Under the pieces are notes generated by a model that made no database searches, was not told the origin of the DNA, and saw only the letters and a program-made list of their open reading frames with translations. Below, in pieces: positions 43,401-56,715 of a stretch of DNA of 64,000 bases. The position numbers and the translations under genes were made by a program. Each line of letters starts with the position of its first letter. Within the stretch, counting starts at the first letter, position 1. Source of the DNA: Perkinsus olseni (taxonomy: Eukaryota); the NCBI GenBank assembly GCA_013115125.1, contig JABANN010000023.1:1-64000 (forward strand), written 5' to 3'.

Positions 43401-44114
43401 CAAAGTGCCAAGTGAGGGAGGCTCGACGTGGCGTCGGTGGGCAGGGGTGGTGGGGGTAGGTTGATTGTAACGTATAAGAGAGAGAAGGATGCGGCCGTTC
43501 TCGAGAAGGAAGAAGCCCTGGCGGGCCTGGGCAAGGCGGAGAGGAAAAGGTGGGTGGGTGCTGATAGCTAGTCGACTACTGTCCACGGTAGGGCGCCTCT
43601 GCGGACGGGAGACCCGCAAGGGCCGAAGGGGGAGAGCTCATCGCCTCCTCCTCCTCTGCCGCCAAAGCAACCGGCTAGGAGAGCGAACCCGCCTGTGAAG
43701 TCTGCTCTGAAGAAGCCTTCTCCGGAGCCAGCTGAGGGAAAGAAGAGACCACAGGCAGCAGCTGCACCGGAGAGGCGACGGGTGGGTGCTGCCTCGCTGT
43801 GTGCCTGGACATTGCGATGATCGTGCCAGGCAAAAGCGAAGCAGGAGAGAAGCCCGCCTCCATCAGCAGTGAGGATGGGAGATGGCCCGTCGGTGGAGCC
43901 GAGTGAGGGCAGCAGCAGCAGCAGCAGCTTCCGTAAGCTCACTCCGGAGAAGGCAGGAGCCAAGCGGAGTGCCGCTGCACCAATGCAAAAAGGTGGGCAG
44001 GCATTCTTCATGACGGTCGGACCGGCACCCATTCTGTTGCTGTCTGATGCATCAGACCCACTCCCGAGCAAGCGAAGGATATCGATGTCGCCAGAGGACT
44101 GCAAGCAGCAGTGA
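37423..44114 (+). CDS. Very large multi-exon coiled-coil protein with SP/TP-rich head and tail and C-terminal CaaX (CKQQ)
   Basis: Start MSTPDSRRVKIVVSPLS; dozens of E/R/A/L heptad-rich exons separated by short introns; tail RKLTPEK...PSKRRISMSPEDCKQQ*. Confidence 0.75.
42950..43209. mobile_element. hAT-superfamily-like MITE (260 bp) inserted in an intron
   Basis: 19-bp TIRs TAGAGGTGGGCGACAGTAC and (reverse complement of right end) TAGAGTTGGGCAACCGTAC, 16/19 identical. Exact 8-bp TSD GCAACCAT at 42942-42949 and 43210-43217. Internal GTAC/AGTACGG subterminal repeats. Confidence 0.92.
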
Positions 44115-44350
44115 TCATGCTGCATCCTCCACCTCCTCCTCTTCCAAGTTCATCCCTGTAAACTGTATGTAATTAATCCATCAATTGCATGAATCAACCT
44201 ACGTACACATAAGAGGGCCGATAACTCTCTTTCTACCAAACTCGCCCTCGCGTTAAGTGTGGGCCTCTGGGATCTCCACAATCGTCATCAGGCCTCCCTT
44301 TTGCCCGGACCCCTTCCCGTCCGGTATCTCAACATCACCTCCGCCAGTAG

Positions 44351-46473
44351 ATGTGCGTCGACAGCGTCGGAACAGCAGCAGCAGCAGCAGCGGCAGCCGA
44401 GGCCGCCGCCGCTGCCACGTGAGGGTTTGGTGCAATCAGGTGGGGCACTCCCGTGGTCAGGTCCTCGGACGCCACAACCGCTAAGCAGTCCGCCAACGCT
44501 ACCCATACGCGGCGAGTTGGCCTACTGTCATTGACGGCGATCGCCTACTTTAACGTCTCTGGCGGTAGGAATGCTCCCGGATCCTTCGCGAGCTTCCTGG
44601 TAGCTCCTCCTCCGACTCGCTGCCTGCTGTGCTATCAGGTCCCTTCGGTTCTGAGGACATTTTTTCTACCGGAGGCCCTCTGCTGGGCATCATTGGTATT
44701 TTCGCAGCCCTTATATTATGGTAAGACTCTGCCCTAACCGCTCGGTATCTCACCCCCCCCCTCCTAGGTCCCTTCCGATGTCCTTCATGACGGCAGAGCT
44801 GTCCAGTACCTTCCCTAGTAACGGTGGATACTCGATATGGGTGGGTCCAACATCACCACTACTACCACTCTTCCACCAACTTGCAGGTGAAAGTTGCCCT
44901 GGGCAACTTCTGGGCCTTCCAGCAGATGTACTGGTCGTGGGTAGCGGCAGCAGTAGACGCCTCCGTCTTCCCGGTAGGAGGAGGAAGGGGAGGTTGGTTG
45001 ATACCCGGTACGCTCGTCAGGTTCTCATCTACGATACAGTAGCCCATCTCACGCCCACCACCCTGGGTGCTCTCCACTGGGCTGCTGCATGGCCGATCAA
45101 GGCAGCCATCAGCGCCCTCTTGACCGTCCCCATGCTCTTCCCTATGGAGATAACGGGCTTCGGTAATCCACCTGTAACACTGACGGTGGGTCGTAAGGCT
45201 CAACTCCCAGTGGTCTAATTTATGCTACTTTCACTGCTTCAACGTCTCTCACGTTGTGATTCAGGCATGATGCTCATGACCATCTTCATTCTCCTACCAT
45301 TTGCTGTCATCGTTTTCTGGGGTCTGTTCAAGGTGATGACACTTCTCGACTTCTCGCCCTCCTTCCACCCGTCGTTCTCAGGCCGACCTCTCAGTCTTGG
45401 GGCAGACCCGACCAATTGGAGAGATAGAGTGGCTCGAGTGGGCAGTAGTCTGTTTTTGGAGGATGACCGGAGTACCACTCCATGGCAGCATCGCCCCTCT
45501 GACCACCGTGCTCAGATGAACGCGGTGTCCACTGTGGCCGGGGAGATCAAAAACCCACAGAAGACGGTCATCAGAGCCTGCCTGTGGTGCATGGTCATCG
45601 TTACTTTACAGCACATAACAGTCCTCGGCGTCGCTGCTGGGCTGGAGGGTGACAACTGGAAGGTGCGTGGGTCGAAGCAGGGAGCGCTTCCTCTCCCTGT
45701 GTTATGTTCAGAACTGGAGTGATGGGTCCCTTGCCATCATCACGAGAGACGCCTTCGGGCCCGTGATGGGGGTGTGGGTGGTCATCACAGCAGTAGTGGC
45801 GAGTGCTGGCCAGTACATGGCCGACATCCTCGAAGCCAGCTACCTCCTATTCGGTCGGGAACAGCGGCGGCATGAGCACTCGGATGCCCTTCACAGGTAT
45901 GTCGCGGTATGGCCTCACTCCCAGCTGGTTTGGGAAGGTCAACAGCCGCTTCAAGACGCCGTGGAACGGCATCTTTTTCCAACTCCTCATCGTCTCGTGT
46001 CTGGTAAGTTTATTATCATCATCCGCGCCGCACTTCTGCGCGTGTCGCCAGGTGGCAGCCGACTTTACTGCCATCCTCGCCATCAATTCGTTCGTAAGTT
46101 GCCTCGCAGCCCTCCTCCAGTTCGTCTCCTTCCTGGTCTTGAGGTGGTCTCGGCCAGAACTGGTGAGCCCTCCACCCGCCGCCCTTGCCATCATGACCCC
46201 CCTCAGGATCGGCCCTTCAAAGTCCCCATCGCGTCGTTCTGGCTCATCGCCCTTCTCACTCTGCCAGCCCTAGCCTACGGCTGTGTTGTCGCGGTCGTGA
46301 CCCTCATGCATGGGTGGCTGCCCCTTATACTGAATTCTATCATATTCTCTATCGGCCTCCTATCGGGCTACTTCGCCCTCTGGCATGCCAACAGGACTGG
46401 ACGACTGCATGACTGGGAAGTGGAGGTCGACTGCGATAACGACGACGTCCGAGCCCGTGTGCCCTCCGAGTGA
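44351..46473 (+). CDS. APC-superfamily polyamine/amino-acid transporter (PUT/RMV1/POT1-like), paralog 1
   Basis: VGLLSLTAIAYFNVSG|GPFGSED...[57 protein letters not shown]. Confidence 0.9.
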
Positions 46474-47362
46474 AGGCGTTGCGAAGATGGTGGAAGATTT
46501 CGTTTTACCACACATGCAACTGTACTTAGGAAATGTTTAGTCGCAGCACATTGACAGCTTTTGCTTGTCTGAACAGATTTTTTTGCAGGAATGTTGTTAC
46601 CTAGTGCCGCTACGCTTCGTGTAAACGATAATTTCAAGCTCATTTGTTTCGTTCGCGCAGTGATCGTAGCTTGTCCAACTCGATGGGTGACAGCCGACGC
46701 GCGTCGTGCAGAGGAACGTGGCGAATAAACCACGTACAGGAAGATGTAAACAGGAAGCTTCAATCGCACTCATTCACCCGTTGCTAATATGACCGAGTTT
46801 TTTTATAAATACCATCAACGTCAGTGGTGAATACACGCATGTACTACTGAGTAGAACCCGGCAGACTGTACGCAACAATATTTAATGCCGACAAGATCTC
46901 GTCGGAGATGGAGAGGGCTGATGTATTCTATCAGCATGCCTGGAGGCTTCAGGAGCAGCCAGTAACTGCCGCTTTAATGAACCGACTGTGATCGTAATTG
47001 CGGACGTGGATAGAAAGGAAGAGGCCGTTCATTTGTAATCGTTGAACGAACACGAAAACAGCACCCTACTACAGCGCAATCGCCACTGCGGAGGCATTAA
47101 GCTCGCGACAGTCGGTGGGGCACTCGACGCGAGACGACACCGGAGAGGGGCGATGCGGCCCTCTTCAACTATTTCCCAGAATTATTGATTATCACCCTCG
47201 AAGTATCGCAATTGACCAACGAGCAATCATCAGCAAAGATTGTGGCGAAACTGTGTGATGATTATGATGAGGAAACGTAAGAGGATTCTTCCTAGGTAAC
47301 GACATGAACAGTAATAGGCAGTAGTACTAGTATGAACACGATGATCATTACGATGGACATTG

Positions 47363-47392
<30 letters not shown>
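47363..47392 (+). repeat. (GAC)10 microsatellite
   Basis: Perfect trinucleotide run in the spacer between convergent transporter genes. Confidence 0.9.
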
Positions 47393-47393
<1 letters not shown>

Positions 47394-47592
47394 TTGGTAA
47401 GGCGTCCTCGAGTGCTACGGCCAACGAAGTGCAGGGGGGAGTAAATGGGAAGTGGTACAACAACTTTTACAACCGTTGGGAATAAATCTCCTCATTAAAT
47501 GGTAGCGGTTTAGTAATCGAGGATAAATAAAACGGAAATAAAGACATCCCACCGTTCATACCACATCTTCCCCGCTTGACTCTGATGAGCCA

Positions 47593-49710
47593 TTACACAT
47601 TCACTGCCTGAAGCGAGGTCTCGGGCTCGCCTTTGGACGGAAGCTCCTTCTCCTCGATGGCACCTTCCGCATGGGGAGAGTCGGCAGTCTCGGTACGAAC
47701 CTCTTCTTGGTCGAGACCGGCGTCGAAGCCGTCCTCCCAGTTTTGTTTTATTCCAAGCTTCTCAGAGTGTTTAACGGCAAGCCAACCTAGTGGGACGCCA
47801 AGGACTAAAACGACACAGTTGAGGATGAGGGTGAACTTGTCGGCGATGAAGGAAGCTATGACAACGAACGTGCCGAAGACAATACACGGCGAGAGAACAA
47901 CCAACAACCACCAGAAGGACTTCACCGGGATCTTGAAGGGTCTCTCCTGAGAAAAAACGGTCATGATTTTCTATTTCCGGAGGACAACCTACCAAGTCCG
48001 ACTGGGACCACCTCAGCTTGAGTAAAGCGAATAGTTCCAATAAAGCCGACAAGCAAGACATGAAAGAGTCAACGGATAAGATTGCGTTGAAATCGAAGGA
48101 TACCTGATAGAGCAGCAGCATGACAGCGCTGCGGGGGAGGGGGTGAGGTTCTCACCAGAGCGCAGATGATGACCAACTGGAAGAACATGGCAAACCACGG
48201 AGTACGGTAGTGGTGATGAAGATAACCGAACCATTTCGGGGCGAGGCCAGCACGGGCCATACCTATGAGGGAAGGACATCAAGCGAGCCGCAGCCACCGG
48301 GGGATTACCGCAAATCTGGTAGCTATCTTCGAGGAGCTCAGCTACGTACTGGCCAGCACTGCCAACGATAGCAGCAGCGACCAACCACCAACCGAACCAG
48401 TCACCGAAGGCACGTTTGGCGACTCCGGAGAGCGCACCGGCTTCCCAGTTCTGAGATCGAAAAGAACATGGAACCCCCACCGGAGGGAACGGAGACGCGA
48501 GCCCACCTGCCAGTTGTCACCATCGATGCCCGCAGCAGTAGAGAGAACAAGGAAGTACTGCAGCGTGCAGACAGCCATACACCCAAGGAGCGCTCGGATG
48601 ACGGTATAAGAGGGACGTTTGGTCTCGCCAGCCACAGTGGAAACACAGTCGACCTGATAATGACGAAGGGTAGGGGAGGGAGATGATGAGGCGAGTTATT
48701 ATTACGCCAGCCATGTTCCAGAAGCAGACGATGGCCCAATTGACCCAATCGATTTCGTTCACTGGGAGCGCCTCACCCAAGACGCTAAGATCGGCCTGAA
48801 GAGAGTAGTTGGGAAAGTGAGCAGGGAAGGAAGGAAGACATACCTTGGTGAGGCCCCAGATGATGAAGACAACGAAAGGAATGAGTACGAAGGCAGACAT
48901 TTGCAGGAGTCCTGAGGATGAGCACGCGTACGGCAGTCAACGCTGGGTGGGAATGGAGGACTCACCAACTCCTGTTATTTTGATGGAGAAGAGCATTGGT
49001 ATAGTGAAGATCACACAGATGACTGCTTTAAACAGCCAAGCCAGACCAGCTGACATGGCACCGAACGTATCCGGTGCCACACTGCTGATAGTCTGGAAAA
49101 TGATGACCTGACAGGAGGGAGGGGGGTGGGTTCCAAGTACGAAGAGGATTGTTATTACGGGATAGACAGCATTGTCTACAACGCCGCTGACCCAGGACCA
49201 GTAGGATTCCTGCACACCCCAGAACTTCCCGAAGGCGGCTTTCACCTGCACGGTATGAGAGGAATAAGGCAGATTATGGCAGTAATAGGAGGACTCACCC
49301 AAAGAGAGTAACCACCATTATACGGAAAAGCACTCGACAACTCAGCGGTCATGAACGATAAAGGTATGGACCTGAAGATACTCATGGAAGAAGCCAGTAC
49401 GATGATGCTGTTGTTGTTGTGGTATTGTTATTATTACCAACAGAATAGACCCATAACCATTCCTATGATACCCCAGAGGGGCCCACCGGCTGAATACATC
49501 TCTTCAGAGCCAAATGGGCCTCCGGAAACATTGAAGAAAGCTATGGCACCAAGCGAGAAAACCCCAATGGTCCTCAGATTAGTGAATGAACCGGGCTTGA
49601 GATCTTCGGAGGAGCTGAAAGGGAGTGGCAAGAAATCAGTTGCAGTCGGTGTTGTAGCATAAAATTTACCTAGTGGAGGGGAGTGATGCTGGAGACACTG
49701 CGCTGGTCAT
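47593..49710 (-). CDS. APC-superfamily polyamine/amino-acid transporter (PUT/RMV1-like), paralog 2
   Basis: MTSAVSPASLPST|SSEDLK...[23 protein letters not shown]...[28 protein letters not shown]...VAGETKRP...ERPFKIP. Confidence 0.92.
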
Positions 49711-49722
49711 TTTTAACGAACG

Positions 49723-49749
49723 TTAAGACGGTTCCCAGACGTAGAACAT
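49723..49749 (-). promoter_or_regulatory. Upstream ORF MFYVWEPS* in the leader of transporter paralog 2
   Basis: ATG TTC TAC GTC TGG GAA CCG TCT TAA, ending 12 nt before the main ATG (49710) and starting 12 nt downstream of a pyrimidine-tract/CAG acceptor (49762-49764). Confidence 0.8.
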
Positions 49750-49920
49750 GCACGATCAATGCTGAAAGAAAAAGGATAACGATGATAGTATTCCCCATAC
49801 CACACCTTCCCGAACACATCCCAAAACTGAGGGTCGGGAAACCGAAGAAAACGATGATGAGCGGGACTGGTAGATAAGCGAACAGAGCCCGTGAAACTGA
49901 CGACGTGTAGAAGATACTCC

Positions 49921-52028
49921 TCACACGGCATTGTTCGCAACAGACGTAATGACAGTGTCACCATCATCATAGCTGGCTCGACCTTCCCCTTCGGACCTTC
50001 CCGGGCTTGGGTGGCCGGCGCCAAGAGAGTCGCTGCGGAAGTTGTCTTCGCAGTCGAAGCCGACCTTCCACATTTGGTCATCGAAGCCCAGCTTGTCCGA
50101 ATGCCGTACAGCGAGCCAACCGAGGACAAGGCCTATGGCAAGGGCTGCACAGTTCAAACCGAAAGTCAACCATCCAGCGATGAAGGAAACAACAACAACG
50201 AAGCCACCATACACCAAGGGAGGCGTCATGACAGCCAGGACGCCCCAAAAGGACTTGATGGGGATACGGTAAGGGCGATCCTGAGAAGGTTTGAGTTGCA
50301 TGAAAGAAGCACGAGTGAGCGGAAGATACTACCATGTCGGGCTCGGACCAACGTAACTTGAGGAGAGAGAAAAACTCAAGCAAGTTGGACATGCAGGCCA
50401 TGAACGAATCCACGGAAAGAATTGTGTTGAAGTCAAATGAGACCTGACGGATGACAATGAGGAGGTGAAGAGATGGTACTACGAGGGTACTACTACCAAG
50501 ACACAGATAACGATGACTTGGAAGATGATGGCCACCCATGGGGTCCTGTAGGTGGGGTGAAGGTATCCAAACCATTTGGGAGCCAACCCAAAACGTGCCA
50601 TGCCTGAGTCAACCTCGGATGCCTGCACGACGAACAGCACCATTATTACCGCAGATCTGATAGCTATCTTCGAGGAGCTCGGCAACGAACTGACCGGCAC
50701 TCCCCACAATGGAGGCAGCCACGAGCCACCACCCAAACCATGTTCCAAAGGCGCGTTTGGCGACGCCCGAGAGCGATCCAGCTTCCCAATTCTGAGGAAA
50801 AAGGCACCTACAAGCTCACCAGCCGACCGTACACAGTGACGGAGTACCTGCCAGTTATCCCCATCCACTCCGGCCGCTGTGGCGAGAACCAGGAAGTACT
50901 GTAGGAATGCTATGATGACACAACCGAGCAAGGCGAGAATGACCGTTTTCTCAGGGCGTTTGACTTCCCCTGCGACGGTAGAAACACAGTCAACCTGAAG
51001 ATATAAAGTTCGTAGTTTATTGCGAGAAGACTGATCCGCCTACCCCTGAGAAGTTCCAAAAGCACACTATGGCCCAGTTGATCCAGTCTATGTCCCCCAA
51101 AGGCTTGCTCTCTCCTAGGACAGTCAGATCTGCTTTAGTGAGACCCCAAATGATAAAGACGACAAAAGGTATGGAAACGAATATGGACATTTGTAGAAGA
51201 CCTGAAGAGGAGAGGTCCGCTACGAGTAGGGGGAGTTGTGGTAGGAGTATTACCATATCCTGTAATTTTTATGGAGAATAACATCGGTACACTAAACGTT
51301 ATACACATGACCGCTTTGACCAACCATTGCAGACCAGCAGACATTGCACCAAAGGACTCGGGTGCAACGCTACTTATGGTTTCGAAAATGATGACCTGAT
51401 GGGAGGGAGGGGGAGGTGGATTCCAAGTACGGAGGAAATTGTTATTACGGGATAGACAGCATTGTCTACAACGCCGCTGACCCAGGACCAGTAGGATTCC
51501 TGCACACCCCAGAACTTCCCGAAGGCGGCCTTTACCTGCACGGTATGAGAGGAATAAGGCAGATTATGGTACTGATAGGAGGACTCACCCAAAGAGAGTA
51601 ACCACCATTATACGGAAAAGCACTCGACAACTCAGCGGTCATGAAAGACATTGGCACGGACCTGGGAAGACATCATTTCGACGGTTTACTTGGATAGTCA
51701 TGCTACTTACCAACATAACAGACCTAAAACCATTCCTATGATACCCCAGAGGGGACCACCGGAGGAAAACATTTCTTCAGAACCAAATGGGCCTGAAGAC
51801 GCCTGTGTAAGTTCTGCTACTGACTACCCTGTTAATACTACTACCTCCGGACACATTAAAGAACGCTACAGCACCAAGTGAGAAGACTCCGATGGTTCTA
51901 ACCTTCGTGAAGGCACCCTTCAGATCTTCACTGGACCTGGGTTCGGGCGATTTAGGACGTGGAATGGCATATCCCTACTACTACCTAGTGGAGGAGGGGA
52001 GTGATACTGGGGACGCGGCGCTGGTCAT
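49921..52028 (-). CDS. APC-superfamily polyamine/amino-acid transporter (PUT/RMV1-like), paralog 3
   Basis: [14 protein letters not shown]|...[23 protein letters not shown]...[10 protein letters not shown]...[10 protein letters not shown]; tandem paralog of 47593-49710. Confidence 0.92.
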
Positions 52029-52037
52029 CTCTTAGGG

Positions 52038-52064
52038 TTAAGATGGTTCCCAGACGTAGAACAT
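52038..52064 (-). promoter_or_regulatory. Upstream ORF MFYVWEPS* in the leader of transporter paralog 3
   Basis: ATG TTC TAC GTC TGG GAA CCA TCT TAA, ending 9 nt before the main ATG (52028) and starting 18 nt downstream of a pyrimidine-tract/CAG acceptor (52083-52085). Confidence 0.8.
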
Positions 52065-52915
52065 GCACAGACAACAAGGCAGCTGAAAAGGCACCAAATG
52101 ACAACAACAATGAGAGTGGAAGCTCACACACAAGGACCTCCTCCTGGACCACCACCAAGCTCGATTCAGGGCGGTAGGGAAGACGGCCTATCACCTCTTC
52201 TATGAGGGTACTGCCTTCATAGGGTTACACTTATTAGCGCTAGGGGACACAAGCTCAGTGTAGTCCACTGGGTGATGCGATCCTAAGGGTTAGATTCTGC
52301 GCATCAGGAGGGGGTCACTGGTAACACAGAGATGCTGTCCCGTTAGCTATATGACGAGATGTGCGGGTGGACCAGAGTGCATGGCCCCGCCCTGATAGAG
52401 GACGGAATTCACGCTTAAGGAACGACACGGTTCGAGTAGGTCCTTGAAAAATATAAAAAAGCTCTTCTTTAAGACTAGTTCCTCTGAGTGAGGTTTCGAC
52501 CCCCATCGGGCGATCCTTAACGGTAGAGATACCTTGGTACCTTGGCTCCACACGATAGCGCATCGGTTTGTACCAACTTTGGAGAGAGAGGACAGTCACC
52601 GAAGACCCAGAGTAATGTTGGAACTACTCTCATGTGTCTAATCATTCAAGTAAGCCTCGCGTCCACAATCAAACAAGGGACCAAACGAGACTTCGGTCGG
52701 CCTGCGGTCGTGACCGTTGTGACGACGGTGCGAGTCCACTGTCGCCTCCCTCCCTAGAATGACTTATAAAACACAACAGGTTGACATGTCCCGTACACTT
52801 ATATCTTCTGCTGTAGGGAAACCAATCACGAGCCGGATAAAATAAGAGCGACTGCAGAAGGAATGATGACAACGACCATAGTCGGACATCGAACCAGCAA
52901 CAGCAACTAACACAT

Positions 52916-53533
52916 TTATCGGAACCTCTTGAGCTGGAGGGTCTGGCGTCTCTTCCAGTTGGCGGTCTTCGAGGGGCGGACCTTGGTACCGAAGTGGGAA
53001 CCACGCTTGTGGATACCACGGCTCTTGCGACCAGCGCTGGTGAGACCGCGGAGCTCACGATGCTTCATGGTGTTGTGAGCGATCCAGTTCATGCGGGGGT
53101 CGTTACGGATGGCGTTGTGCATGGGATCGACCATGATGACCTCGAAGAACTTGAACTGAGCGTCCTGACCAACCCAGTAGGAGTTGAGGACGCGGAGAGA
53201 ACCGCAGCGGCGACCAACACGCTCCTCAGCGATGGCGCGGAGGGACTTGGTAGACTTCTGCTTGTTGACACCCTGGTGGACGGGCTTACCGTAGACGATA
53301 CCCTTGGAGACGCGCTTCTTACGGTCACCCCTGCGGATGCGGACGCGGTAGATGACAACACCCTGCTTGGCCTTGTAACCGAGACGACGGGCCTTGTCGG
53401 GGCGAGTGGCCTTAGAGGCGCGATGGACAGCGGGGAGCTGACGGAACTCCCAGTTCCTGACGCGAATCAAGAAGCGCATCACATCGGACTGCTTCTTGTT
53501 CCAGATCTCAGAGAGGTACTTGTAGGCTCCCAT
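52916..53533 (-). CDS. RPL15: 60S ribosomal protein L15 (eL15), intronless CDS
   Basis: [26 protein letters not shown]...[15 protein letters not shown]...[12 protein letters not shown]...[11 protein letters not shown]. Confidence 0.98.
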
Positions 53534-53910
53534 TATTACAGATAGAAGATTGGGGTGACTTACTCCAAGGAAGAGAACAGCCAACGAACGCCACCAAATC
53601 GATCAAACGCAATAGCGATAATTTCGTGGCGCGTGACGCTAGTTGTCGGGTTTAACTGAGGAGCTACTCCTCACTGAAGGAACGGTAAGGACTCCCCTCT
53701 TGAAGGTTTGCTTCGAGGAGCAACTCCTAGGCTGTAGGGCCGCTGTTTCGGATTCGTTTTTTCACGACGATTTTCAGCAACTGAATCGTTCGGGGTGGGG
53801 GAGGGAGGAACCAATTACTACGAAATTCCGAGTCGATTGTGGAACCACTTTTTACGAGTTTTATAGAAGGAGACAAGCTTCGAGCTCTAAAGCCTTTGCA
53901 GGGCGACCGA

Positions 53911-56715
53911 ATGGCTGTTGGGTTGAGTACCGGTGAATTAAAAAACCAGAAGCTCTTCAACAACCAGCCATCGCAGCAGTTCCCCTTCTACTGTTCCCGG
54001 GGACATTGGCCCCCCTATCTGTTCTCATGACGTTACGTGACCAAATAAAGAGGACCATAATAAGCCTGTGGGGCCCCTCTACGAGTAGCGCGTCAGTACA
54101 GTGAAAGGCTTAGGTATAATGATCGTATTTACCCCGACTTCCAGTCGGTCAAGAAACGCCATGAAGAACGGTATAAGGCCGAACCTTTAACCTTGGACAC
54201 TCTCATGTAGCGGACGGGCCCTCTATTGCTGTCAGGGATGCCACCCCTCAGGCACCTTTGCAATCAGAACAACCCTGACTTCTCGATCGAGAAGGCGGAG
54301 GACCGGCCCGTCCCGGGTTTCAAATTGTAGGCCGAACAGGGGCAAAGTCACTGGAGAAAATAGTCCCGCTTCAGGGCTCACCCGCCCAAGTCGTTCCGAG
54401 GCTTCGTGTCACCAACGGTAATCGATCGGAAGACCCTAGTGTCCCAGCAGCTCCGTTGTTAGGATCCCGTGGATTACTACGGCCCCCAACTGTGGGAGGC
54501 CTTCAGGACGGAGATCAACTCGCTACTACTCTACGATCGTGAGCAGCAGCCCAACCCTACCTCATTTCAATAACACTTTCGCCTCAGCGAGCTACTACAC
54601 CTTCCCCGGTGGTCGGTACGGGACAGCAAGAGCGCTAAAGGAACGGAACTTAAGATTCCTCAACGGTTACAGTCTAGGCGAGCTTTGCCATATTGTAGGC
54701 CACGAGTGCGCACGATCTAGGGAAAAGTTGGTATGTTTAGGTTCAGCTGGCCATAGATAAGGAGATACTCGCTTACGGTAAGAGCGGCTCCGTTGTACCG
54801 TTCAAAGTGAGTTCGAAGGCCGAGAAGGACGCCAACGCCAGTAAGCCCTTCCTTCGGGTGAACCCTCTTCGACTGCCGCTCACCGTAGGGGATAAGAAGC
54901 CTACATTTGCGGGGCATCGCCGGCAGGTCCCCGTTAAGGAGGGATCGGAGCACAGTCGTCGGGACACCACGGTGAGTTGCCGTACTCTCGAGTAGAGGAG
55001 CATCGCTGCTGTCAGGATTCCTCGGGGGACCATGGATCGAGCTCTGACCACAGCAGCTCGTCACACCTCTCGCCGCGGAGCGAATCGACTAGGGAGGACT
55101 TCATAGCCACCTGGGGCCGGCTGCGAGAGGTCCTTTATACCCTATTAACGTAGGCCTATGGCTGGTGACCTAGGCACATATGGCCCTGTCAGGAGCACCG
55201 AGTGGAAGCATCGCATACTACTACTGTCCAACCTCAAGAACGAAATACGGCGTCACTTCGGTGGTGTTGTCCTAAGCGAGACGGCTCTGGGCCACACCAA
55301 GCTGATTGACATGGTGAGATAGCGCTCCGTTCTCCCTTCTTCCGGACTACCACCCTCGTCAGGTCCAAGATCCGAAGCTCACTGATCTGGTCTTCGTTGA
55401 CTGGCGCCGCAACAACCCTGTCCTCAAATTAGAGGCGGGGGCGACGCTTCACAAGCCCAATGTTGCCTCTGTTACCATGGCTACTCGTAAGGGGGCTCCA
55501 GTGAAGCTCTCCCGGGACCACACTCTCCCAGCTCATCGAGCCTCTACGATGAGCATCACACCAGAAAGGACAGCCTCCGGGAGTAGAACTGCAGGAGGCT
55601 CCACGACCAAGACGGTGTCGTCTGGAGATCAGCCCCCTTGCACGGCTACGGGAGGCCAAGAGCAGCAGCAGCAGCAGCCTTCCCCGGCCATATGGTTGAA
55701 GAATACCTTCCTGCAGTACTCCCACCATCGAGCCCTTGTGTGCGGAAATTGTGTTCCTCGACAGGTATGCGGATTCTGAGGAAGTGGAGGCCCTTGAGAA
55801 GTCCCGACGTGTCAAAACAGCCCCAGACGAGTACATCCTCTCTACGGCAGATCGCGCAATAGCAGATCTCCATATCAACCAGTAGTGCTCATCTCTTTCG
55901 ACCTCTGCGCTGCTCGTAGCCTTGTTGCTATAGCTACCAAGTCACGCCACTGGACTTCCCTCTGGTACCACCAGCGACCACTGAGACAGACTACGACCTC
56001 ACCAATGGGGACTCTGTCGGAACGGCGGGAACGGCCCCACCTGGACTGGAGGCCCAAGCTGCCGCCCCTCTGTCCCCGCTGGCCCACCCTGTCAATGAGG
56101 TCTCCGATGCTATCGCCACCTTTGGCTCCAGCACTGAGCTCCACGAGACCTTGCCGGACCTCGAACTACTCCTTGCGCAGCTGGAAAGTGACAACTCTTC
56201 CGGTCGAGGAAAGTGAGTCACCTCGTCCGAGAGCCCGCGAGGATGGCCTTCCCTTGCAGGGTTCTCAATGCGAGTGCCGCTGAGTTCGTGCCGATGCGCT
56301 CCCAGACGCCTCGGCCACCGCCAGACACCTTCATGCAAAGTTTGTTGCTCACGAGTGGCTCCAACTTCCATCAGCCCCCCACACCAGCTGCAGCAGAAGC
56401 ACCATCGCTAGGTGATTCCGCTTTCCCTCGTCTGATTGTAGTCTGCCCTGTGAAGGTCCCCCGATAACCCCTGGTGGGGTACTACTCTCGCAGGCAATAG
56501 AAGCAGAAGCCTACCCGTGGATTAGTCGAACGCCAGGAGGGTGTACGGTCGGCACTCTACTGGATGCATGCGGTTCTCCCACGGGAGTGATGGCCGCTGA
56601 AAGCTGCGAAGAAGTCCTTAGATCCCCTCTTAGGGTGAGCTAGTCCGCTCAAGTTGCCTCTGCATCGGTTCATGATTCAGCAGGTCCCCCCTCATCACGG
56701 ATGACCTCTGGCTGA
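53911..56715 (+). CDS. OHA + LOTUS (OST-HTH) RNA-binding protein with PAM2 motif
   Basis: IISL|YNDRIYP, GFVSPT|DPVDYY, FPGGRYGTARALK...YSLGELCHI|VQLAI (OHA); LLLSNLKNEIRRHFGGVVLSETALGHTKLIDM (LOTUS); VLNASAAEFVP (PAM2). 3' end approximate. Confidence 0.85.

Follow-up and report, generated by a model that had tools for sequence, protein, structure and literature searches.

Within the first 64,000 nucleotides (nt) of contig JABANN010000023.1 of Perkinsus olseni (GenBank assembly GCA_013115125.1; positions 1 to 64,000 of the forward strand, hereafter the window), two tandem paralogs for putative polyamine transporters, genes A and B, carry in their leaders the same eight-codon upstream open reading frame (uORF), MFYVWEPS, which places Pro-Ser directly before the stop codon. 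The original prediction for this DNA had treated a Pro-Ser-stop ending as a hallmark of polyamine-responsive uORFs, and the portions of the literature consulted here support that view (PMC11550727, PMC10855120, PMC2811004). By analogy with the fungal gene HOL1, we propose that this uORF may act as an independently evolved, polyamine- and eIF5A-sensitive gate on PUT-like carriers, a reading to which we assign a probability of roughly 0.45. That the sensor arose by convergence is a coherent idea that we infer from the evidence set out below.

Two tandem transporter genes share a nearly identical uORF

Genes A and B are tandem paralogs; aligned over 518 columns, their proteins agree at 375. Their exon models were read from the sequence, and the genes and the elements of their leaders are as follows.

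49921..52028, minus strand: gene A, PUT-like APC transporter, 12 exons, 514 amino acids
52029..52037, minus strand: spacer of gene A, 9 nt, with a second in-frame TAA and two AG dinucleotides
52038..52064, minus strand: uORF of gene A, MFYVWEPS-stop, 8 codons plus TAA, first ATG of the leader
52037..52068, minus strand: conserved 32-nt island of gene A (GTGC, uORF and C), repeat family D7, 97%
52083..52084, minus strand: predicted trans-splice acceptor AG of gene A, 18 nt 5' of the uORF AUG, with a pyrimidine tract followed by CAG
47593..49710, minus strand: gene B, PUT-like APC transporter, 12 exons, 512 amino acids
49711..49722, minus strand: spacer of gene B, 12 nt
49723..49749, minus strand: uORF of gene B, MFYVWEPS-stop, 8 codons plus TAA, first ATG of the leader
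49722..49753, minus strand: conserved 32-nt island of gene B (GTGC, uORF and C), repeat family D7
49762..49763, minus strand: trans-splice acceptor AG of gene B, with a pyrimidine tract and CAG as in gene A

When the window was searched with the pattern ATGTTCTACGTCTGGGAACC[G/A]TCTTAA, exactly two matches were returned, at 49749..49723 and 52064..52038 on the minus strand, and the pattern had no match across 100 dinucleotide shuffles. The two copies of the uORF are identical at 26 of 27 nt, and their single difference, CCG in gene B and CCA in gene A, encodes proline in both; each copy ends in GAA CC[G/A] TCT TAA. Identity extends to the GTGC that precedes the AUG and to the C that follows the TAA, such that the 32-nt island matches at 31 positions in an alignment of the leaders. 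The surrounding sequence is considerably more diverged. Upstream of the island, 49 of 132 nt (37%) are identical between the genes, and on the downstream side the spacers differ in length and match at 4 of 8 positions with an indel. Coding exon 1 is identical at 37 of 44 positions with a 3-nt indel, and intron 1 at 17 of 48 (35%).

The uORF of each gene shares the reading frame of the main ATG, at an AUG-to-AUG distance of 36 nt in gene A and 39 nt in gene B, and the gene A spacer contributes a second stop in that frame (TAA CCC TAA GAG ATG). From the acceptor up to the main ATG, neither leader has any ATG other than that of the uORF. The main AUGs of the two genes have A or G at position -3 and A at +4, and the stop context of the uORF, UAA-C, with C at +4, is kept in both copies. 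The sequence check and the leader alignment thus uphold what had been claimed for this element, namely an identical peptide ahead of both APC paralogs with one Pro-synonymous change, a retained GTGC context between more diverged flanks and spacers of 12 and 9 nt, a first coding exon less conserved than the uORF, and a second in-frame TAA ahead of gene A.

The uORF is part of the spliced-leader-capped mRNA of gene B

The original prediction had placed both copies just 3' of a splice or trans-splice acceptor and within the mature mRNA. To evaluate this claim, we used spliced contigs of two RNA runs, X1 and X2, aligned to positions 47300-53800, for which 15 of 20 joints and 8 of 26 loose contig ends were listed. 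All 15 joints listed match the introns read from the sequence, with 11 of the 11 introns of gene B covered in both X1 and X2 and 4 of the 11 introns of gene A. For gene B, the joint 49614->49670 is followed by 94 colinear letters, up to 49763, and exon 1, the spacer and the uORF are therefore uninterrupted in RNA. A micro-intron that would remove the uORF stop in gene B was considered and is ruled out by the contigs that are colinear over 49670-49763.

Loose contig ends of gene B lie at 49763 in both runs, precisely at the acceptor AG, and they continue into letters that are not genomic: 10 letters in X1, and 4 letters in X2 that are followed by sequencing adapter. When the loose end at 49763 is reverse-complemented and joined to the genomic AG, it reproduces the final 12 nt of PmaSL1 in the form printed in PMC3101222. 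The mature leader of gene B consists of the 22-nt spliced leader (SL), 12 nt, the uORF, 12 nt and the main AUG, which sets the uORF AUG 34 nt from the cap. We conclude that the uORF lies in the spliced-leader-capped mature mRNA of gene B.

Evidence for gene A is indirect. No 5' loose end of gene A is present among the 8 of 26 loose ends listed, and the depth falls between bins 51857-52073 and 52074-52290 from 8.96 to 0.58 in X1 and from 270 to 23.9 in X2. This drop fits gene A transcripts that end approximately 10-11 nt into the bin 52074-52290, which therefore supports the acceptor AG at 52084-52083 indirectly and would place the uORF AUG about 40 nt from the cap. The claim that the uORF is retained in mature mRNA is thus established directly for gene B through SL-tailed contigs, and the depth drop suggests that it applies to gene A. 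Beyond this point, low-depth contigs (approximately 7) of run X2 are present at 52092-52751, between gene A and its upstream neighbour, the gene for ribosomal protein L15e; they may represent unprocessed precursor RNA or carry-over of DNA.

The main ORFs encode homologues of plant PUT/RMV1-type transporters

Single exons of genes A and B show weak, colinear Pfam matches to AA_permease_2 and AA_permease. Precomputed matches of full-length orthologues, available for proteins P0001 and P0002 and for the cluster of P0104, are to PF13520 and PF00324, which represent APC-type permeases, and the major-facilitator family (MFS) is absent from the Pfam matches of these transporters. HOL1 is an MFS protein. 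The original prediction had called HOL1 unrelated to APC carriers, and the part of that statement concerning genes A and B is supported here, as their orthologues carry AA_permease_2 and have no MFS match; the part concerning HOL1 is background.

An exhaustive phmmer search of 1.84 billion representative proteins returned 5116 proteins at E <= 1e-3 and 419 at E <= 1e-30. Among these relatives are a date palm protein named polyamine transporter RMV1-like/PUT1 (P0165; E 3.2e-60) and an Impatiens protein named probable polyamine transporter At3g13620 (P0188; E 3.2e-54). BLASTP aligned the P. chesapeaki homologue P0001 to P0165 with 131 of 399 residues identical (33%; E 2e-69) and 9 gap positions, and the two proteins share blocks around VSGG.FG.E, TAE..FP.NGGY..WV and ST.AGE. 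In the ESM Atlas, a streptophyte cluster named Polyamine transporter PUT1 ranks second among named clusters (0.98, 221/256). Models for LAT, CAT and basic amino acid/polyamine antiporters scored from 1e-11 to 4e-11, compared with E 3e-60 and 3e-54 for the proteins with PUT-type names, which are automatic. Word-based protein searches, using a 58-amino-acid exon or an alignment of 30 relatives, returned generic names only and no named polyamine transporter. These comparisons establish homology of genes A and B with the PUT/RMV1-type polyamine transporters of plants, in agreement with the predicted resemblance, and their carriers may transport polyamines.

Duplication of the genes and constraint on the uORF

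We assessed the age of the duplication using relatives from two further Perkinsus species. P. marinus encodes an adjacent pair, in which P0002 is identical to gene A at 385 of 450 positions and P0104 to gene B at 464 of 518, and P. chesapeaki has the homologues P0001 and P0003, with FOL47_000610/FOL47_000612 as its orthologous pair. In a maximum-likelihood tree of 11 rows, gene A groups with P0002 (100/99) and gene B with P0104 (100/98), and the duplication that produced genes A and B therefore predates the split between P. olseni and P. marinus. Over the full coding regions, 86 of 191 fourfold degenerate sites are identical between genes A and B, and within codons 200-480 this value is about 20-30%, which is near saturation. 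In this setting, purifying selection is the most likely cause of the identity between the two uORFs. That identity is remarkable relative to the non-coding flanks, and it is not remarkable relative to the best-conserved coding stretches of the same two genes.

Proposed mechanism and comparison with known uORFs

The gate that we propose would operate as follows. The uORF AUG has U at both -3 and +4, a context that may be sub-optimal in Perkinsus, so that many scanning subunits would bypass it and go on to initiate at the transporter ORF. Those ribosomes that translate the uORF instead would terminate at Pro-Ser-UAA-C, which is expected to be a slow context assisted by eIF5A; in yeast, C at +4 weakens termination at all three stop codons (PMC4748822). 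High levels of polyamines would delay release, and the parked 80S ribosome would cover or abut the main AUG located 9-12 nt downstream, which would block scanning subunits that arrive later. Queuing may further raise initiation at the uORF, and with 11 introns downstream, nonsense-mediated decay may add to the repression. A cell replete with polyamines would consequently lower its capacity for uptake. In this scheme we infer translation of the uORF, stalling at its end, the dependence on polyamines and eIF5A, and the substrate of the carriers. The more complete scenario, in which Perkinsozoa independently evolved a minimal eight-codon Pro-Ser-UAA-C sensor that is the first AUG behind the SL and gates PUT-type importers by means of a ribosome stalled on the main AUG, is one that we hold more tentatively than the gate itself.

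The logic and the motif are those of the uORFs of HOL1 and AdoMetDC and of the uCC of ODC homologs; what would be new is the unrelated carrier family and the lineage. The closest parallel is HOL1 of Saccharomyces cerevisiae and other fungi, whose uORF encodes MLLLPS-stop and depends on eIF5A (PMC10855120). Its Pro-Ser-stop motif is conserved, leaky scanning past the uORF gives expression at low polyamine levels, and high polyamine levels impair release at the motif and cause queuing (PMC11550727). Perkinsus resembles this system in having a very short Pro-Ser-stop uORF ahead of a polyamine importer, a role predicted here for the carriers, and the leaky scanning and the impaired eIF5A-assisted release described for HOL1 are what we propose for Perkinsus. 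The systems differ in that the peptides are unrelated apart from the initial M and the final PS (FYVWE compared with LLL), and in that the Perkinsus mRNA is trans-spliced to an SL. In Perkinsus, the spacer to the main AUG is just 9-12 nt. They also differ in their transporters, as the Perkinsus carriers are AA_permease_2 proteins homologous to plant PUTs. The Perkinsus system therefore works like HOL1 at most, and it is not a member of the HOL1/MFS transporter class.

Other polyamine-responsive leaders share individual features with the Perkinsus uORF. The AdoMetDC uORFs, which include the vertebrate MAGDIS-stop and the small uORF of plants, are likewise cap-proximal and short, and in AdoMetDC a polyamine-dependent termination stall occludes initiation downstream, as described for a ribosome that halts on reaching the end of the MAGDIS uORF near the cap (PMC2811004). 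The plant AdoMetDC small uORF ends in Pro-Ser as in Perkinsus, and a proline in the penultimate position is close to universal among AdoMetDC uORFs (PMC2811004). In contrast to the Perkinsus element, AdoMetDC uORFs control a biosynthetic enzyme rather than a transporter and have no sequence homology to MFYVWEPS, and the plant uORF, which is of far greater length, has a second, tiny uORF overlapping it. The upstream coding region known as uCC, found in mRNAs of ODC homologs of the antizyme-inhibitor type, begins at a weak start and ends in Pro-Ser in animals of six phyla, and polyamine-induced pausing with ribosome queuing raises upstream initiation there (PMC2811004, PMC11550727). The uCC differs in its near-cognate start, its far greater length and its pause at PPW during elongation, compared with the AUG and eight codons in Perkinsus. 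With the plant PUT/LAT transporters (RMV1/PUT3, PUT1 and At3g13620), the likeness is full-length homology of the main ORFs, although identity is just 29-33% and the names of the plant hits are automatic.

Among the papers listed by a literature search, judged by titles and the beginnings of abstracts, none dealt with a uORF in plant PUT genes, and the consulted text of the tomato Put paper PMC9952195 contained nothing usable on motifs. Judged in the same way, the papers listed from the open-access literature did not describe Perkinsus uORFs or, by title, the control of Perkinsus transporters in a polyamine context, and PMC5009743 mentions Perkinsus solely through a reference on mitochondrial frameshifting. 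A search by the accession numbers of the P. marinus orthologues (XP_002780387/XP_002780388) returned no paper.

Alternative explanations and points against a polyamine gate

The observations that weigh against a polyamine gate are best considered with the explanations that compete with it. The identity of the two uORFs could have no function and be left over from gene conversion, or from chance, between tandem paralogs. Genes A and B share a recent conversion tract (51411-51664 and 49121-49374) of 254 nt at 93% identity that spans a whole intron; fourfold degenerate sites are identical at 19 of 20 positions in codons 80-120, and the 12 of 21 identical in codons 0-40 represent high synonymous identity in the 5' exons. 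Among nine-codon coding windows, 40 of 499 are identical at no fewer than 26 of 27 positions (at least 26/27), all of them in or beside the conversion tract. The tandem copies of P. chesapeaki, P0001 and P0003, cluster together inside the B clade (99/97), unlike the copies of P. olseni and P. marinus, a pairing that points to concerted evolution or a separate duplication. However, a tract that explains the uORF would need to span approximately 32 nt and end exactly at the context nucleotides of the uORF, even though the adjoining spacer has an indel and several substitutions and both intron 1 and the upstream sequence are diverged to the extent given above. A recent conversion tract across the region is further disfavoured because the spacer and intron 1 cannot be aligned, and we consider an origin without function improbable. 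Selection could alternatively act on the 32 nt as a nucleic-acid element, such as an enhancer of trans-splicing, a site for an RNA-binding protein or a DNA promoter element, with the ORF as a by-product. Conservation that reaches 4 nt before the AUG and 1 nt past the stop fits this explanation, and six of the seven positions capable of synonymous change are unchanged, which is somewhat beyond what selection on the peptide needs. Comparison of two sequences, paralogs of one genome, cannot separate constraint on the peptide from constraint on the nucleotides, and a single synonymous change cannot do so either; neutral evolution would by itself leave about one change in four synonymous. On the other hand, the edges of the island coincide almost exactly with the contexts of the start and stop codons, the sole change falls at a third codon position, and the frame, the AUG and the stop are intact in both copies. 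A reading of the island as RNA structure was rejected, as the element folds no better than shuffles (z-scores from +0.3 to +0.8), with no stable or shared fold, and Rfam has no family match anywhere in the window. We regard a nucleic-acid element as improbable.

A functional uORF need not be a polyamine sensor, and it could instead provide constitutive damping or respond to another signal, such as a different cationic substrate, the supply of amino acids or the stringency of initiation, with the Pro-Ser ending incidental. The constraint and the mRNA evidence fit this explanation equally well, and a first AUG located 9-12 nt ahead of the main AUG would inhibit whatever peptide it encodes. A Pro-Ser ending occurs by chance in 10 of the 1005 short ORFs of the window (approximately 1%). 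The identity of the carriers also leaves room for this explanation, as public names are generic (amino acid transporter or hypothetical). Of 20 relatives checked by name among the best 150 from phmmer, 2 were named for polyamines and 18 were unnamed or generic, and identity to the PUT-named proteins is 29-33%, with those names being automatic annotations. No NCBIfam subfamily scored above its cut-off (the best, TIGR00909, reached 102 bits against a cut-off of 557), and a sequence search of the PDB gave 0 matches and thus no solved relative. Yet an incidental peptide would not need the keeping of eight codons, the GTGC and the C at +4 beside a drifting spacer, and this explanation leaves the coincidence of a Pro-Ser-stop ending with PUT homology unexplained, when such endings recur in uORFs of the polyamine pathway according to the excerpts consulted (PMC2811004, PMC11550727). 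We therefore view a uORF that serves another purpose as a genuine, if unlikely, alternative. Joining of the uORF to the transporter by stop-codon readthrough, which would yield an N-terminal extension, is compatible with the shared frame of the two ORFs in both copies, and C at +4 favours readthrough, being the context in which yeast terminates least efficiently at each of the three stop codons (PMC4748822). The second in-frame stop of the gene A spacer, TAA-G, argues against such a protein, as do spacer 'codons' that are not conserved. Another point against it is that the P. marinus and P. chesapeaki orthologues of gene B retain the N-terminus MTSA..SP.SLPS starting at the annotated ATG. Readthrough is accordingly hardly credible.

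Further points against the polyamine gate come from the locus itself and from more distant homologues. The third paralog in the window has no ATG within 160 nt upstream and so is without this uORF. Two AG dinucleotides are present in the gene A spacer at 52029-52033 (minus strand), 2-5 nt before the main ATG, and none in the spacer of gene B; those of gene A could serve as alternative SL acceptors that yield mRNA free of the uORF. Distant homologues were surveyed in one metagenome scan of 80 loci, which were mostly long, intron-free, bacterial-looking contigs with 30-34% identity, plus a few that resembled transcripts. A degenerate MFYVWEPS-type pattern matched 0 of these 80 loci, most of them bacterial or non-alveolate. 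The leaders of 78 loci that had at least 60 nt were scanned for any uORF ending in Pro-Ser-stop, and 16 loci were also read by eye; a single locus (L074) had one, MPS-stop, which is the level expected by chance (approximately 1%). The only clearly alveolate transcript, the metatranscriptome contig L002, has the final 7 letters of the dinoflagellate spliced leader at its start and encodes a 40%-identical homologue, and its first 110 positions (L002:1-110) contain a six-codon uORF, MNWRLP-stop, 58 nt before the main ATG. Its Pro-stop ending is a single case and could be due to chance.

Gene models and neighbouring genes

Two further genes of the locus bear on the annotation.

52916..53533, minus strand: ribosomal protein L15e gene, intronless, upstream neighbour that bounds the intergenic region; Pfam PF00827, E 1.5e-87
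44352..46540, plus strand: third, divergent paralog, located by tblastn, with an N-terminus that matches P0115

The gene A protein is present letter for letter within the public P. olseni model P0103, which also contains residues 15-512 of gene B. Public models for this locus are wrongly fused: P0103 joins genes A and B and omits exon 1 of gene B, and P0111 joins L15e with both genes. In the region 47593-53533 (minus strand), gene B gives rise to a separate mRNA, because RNA contigs with a spliced-leader tail precede it. The two genes also differ in their introns. The intron of gene A at 51793-51844, located at the GG|PFG codons, is absent from gene B, as read from the sequence, and the intron of gene B at 48796-48843, after ...LTK, is absent from gene A and is among the RNA joints listed.

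In run X2, a contig of L15e ends at 53583 (minus strand) directly at adapter and without an SL tail, with pyrimidine-rich sequence just downstream; the L15e mRNA may start at 53583 without trans-splicing. The protein of the third paralog is identical to that of gene A at 229 of 474 positions. Runs of CAG/GCA repeats (family D4) are present at 43895-44407 and 55642-55679, and those at 44352-44407 are coding sequence for the poly-alanine stretch at the N-terminus of the third paralog.

Significance

One outcome is already useful: the locus is wrongly fused in the public gene models of P. olseni, and the true 5' end of gene B has been set by RNA. If the polyamine gate is real, it would extend the Pro-Ser-stop polyamine switch beyond opisthokonts and plants to an alveolate, and also to importers of a second class that is unrelated to the first. 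This would argue that termination after Pro-Ser, slow and assisted by eIF5A, is a general property of eukaryotic ribosomes that has been recruited repeatedly, and Pro-Ser-stop would represent a convergent, near-universal eukaryotic solution to polyamine sensing, in this case on an APC-type carrier. For Perkinsozoa, the element would be the first metabolite-sensing uORF described and a rare instance of gene-specific translational control in organisms in which all mRNAs receive the same spliced leader. It would also provide a first entry point to the study of polyamine homeostasis in this parasite, whose infection of molluscs such as clams is of economic importance.

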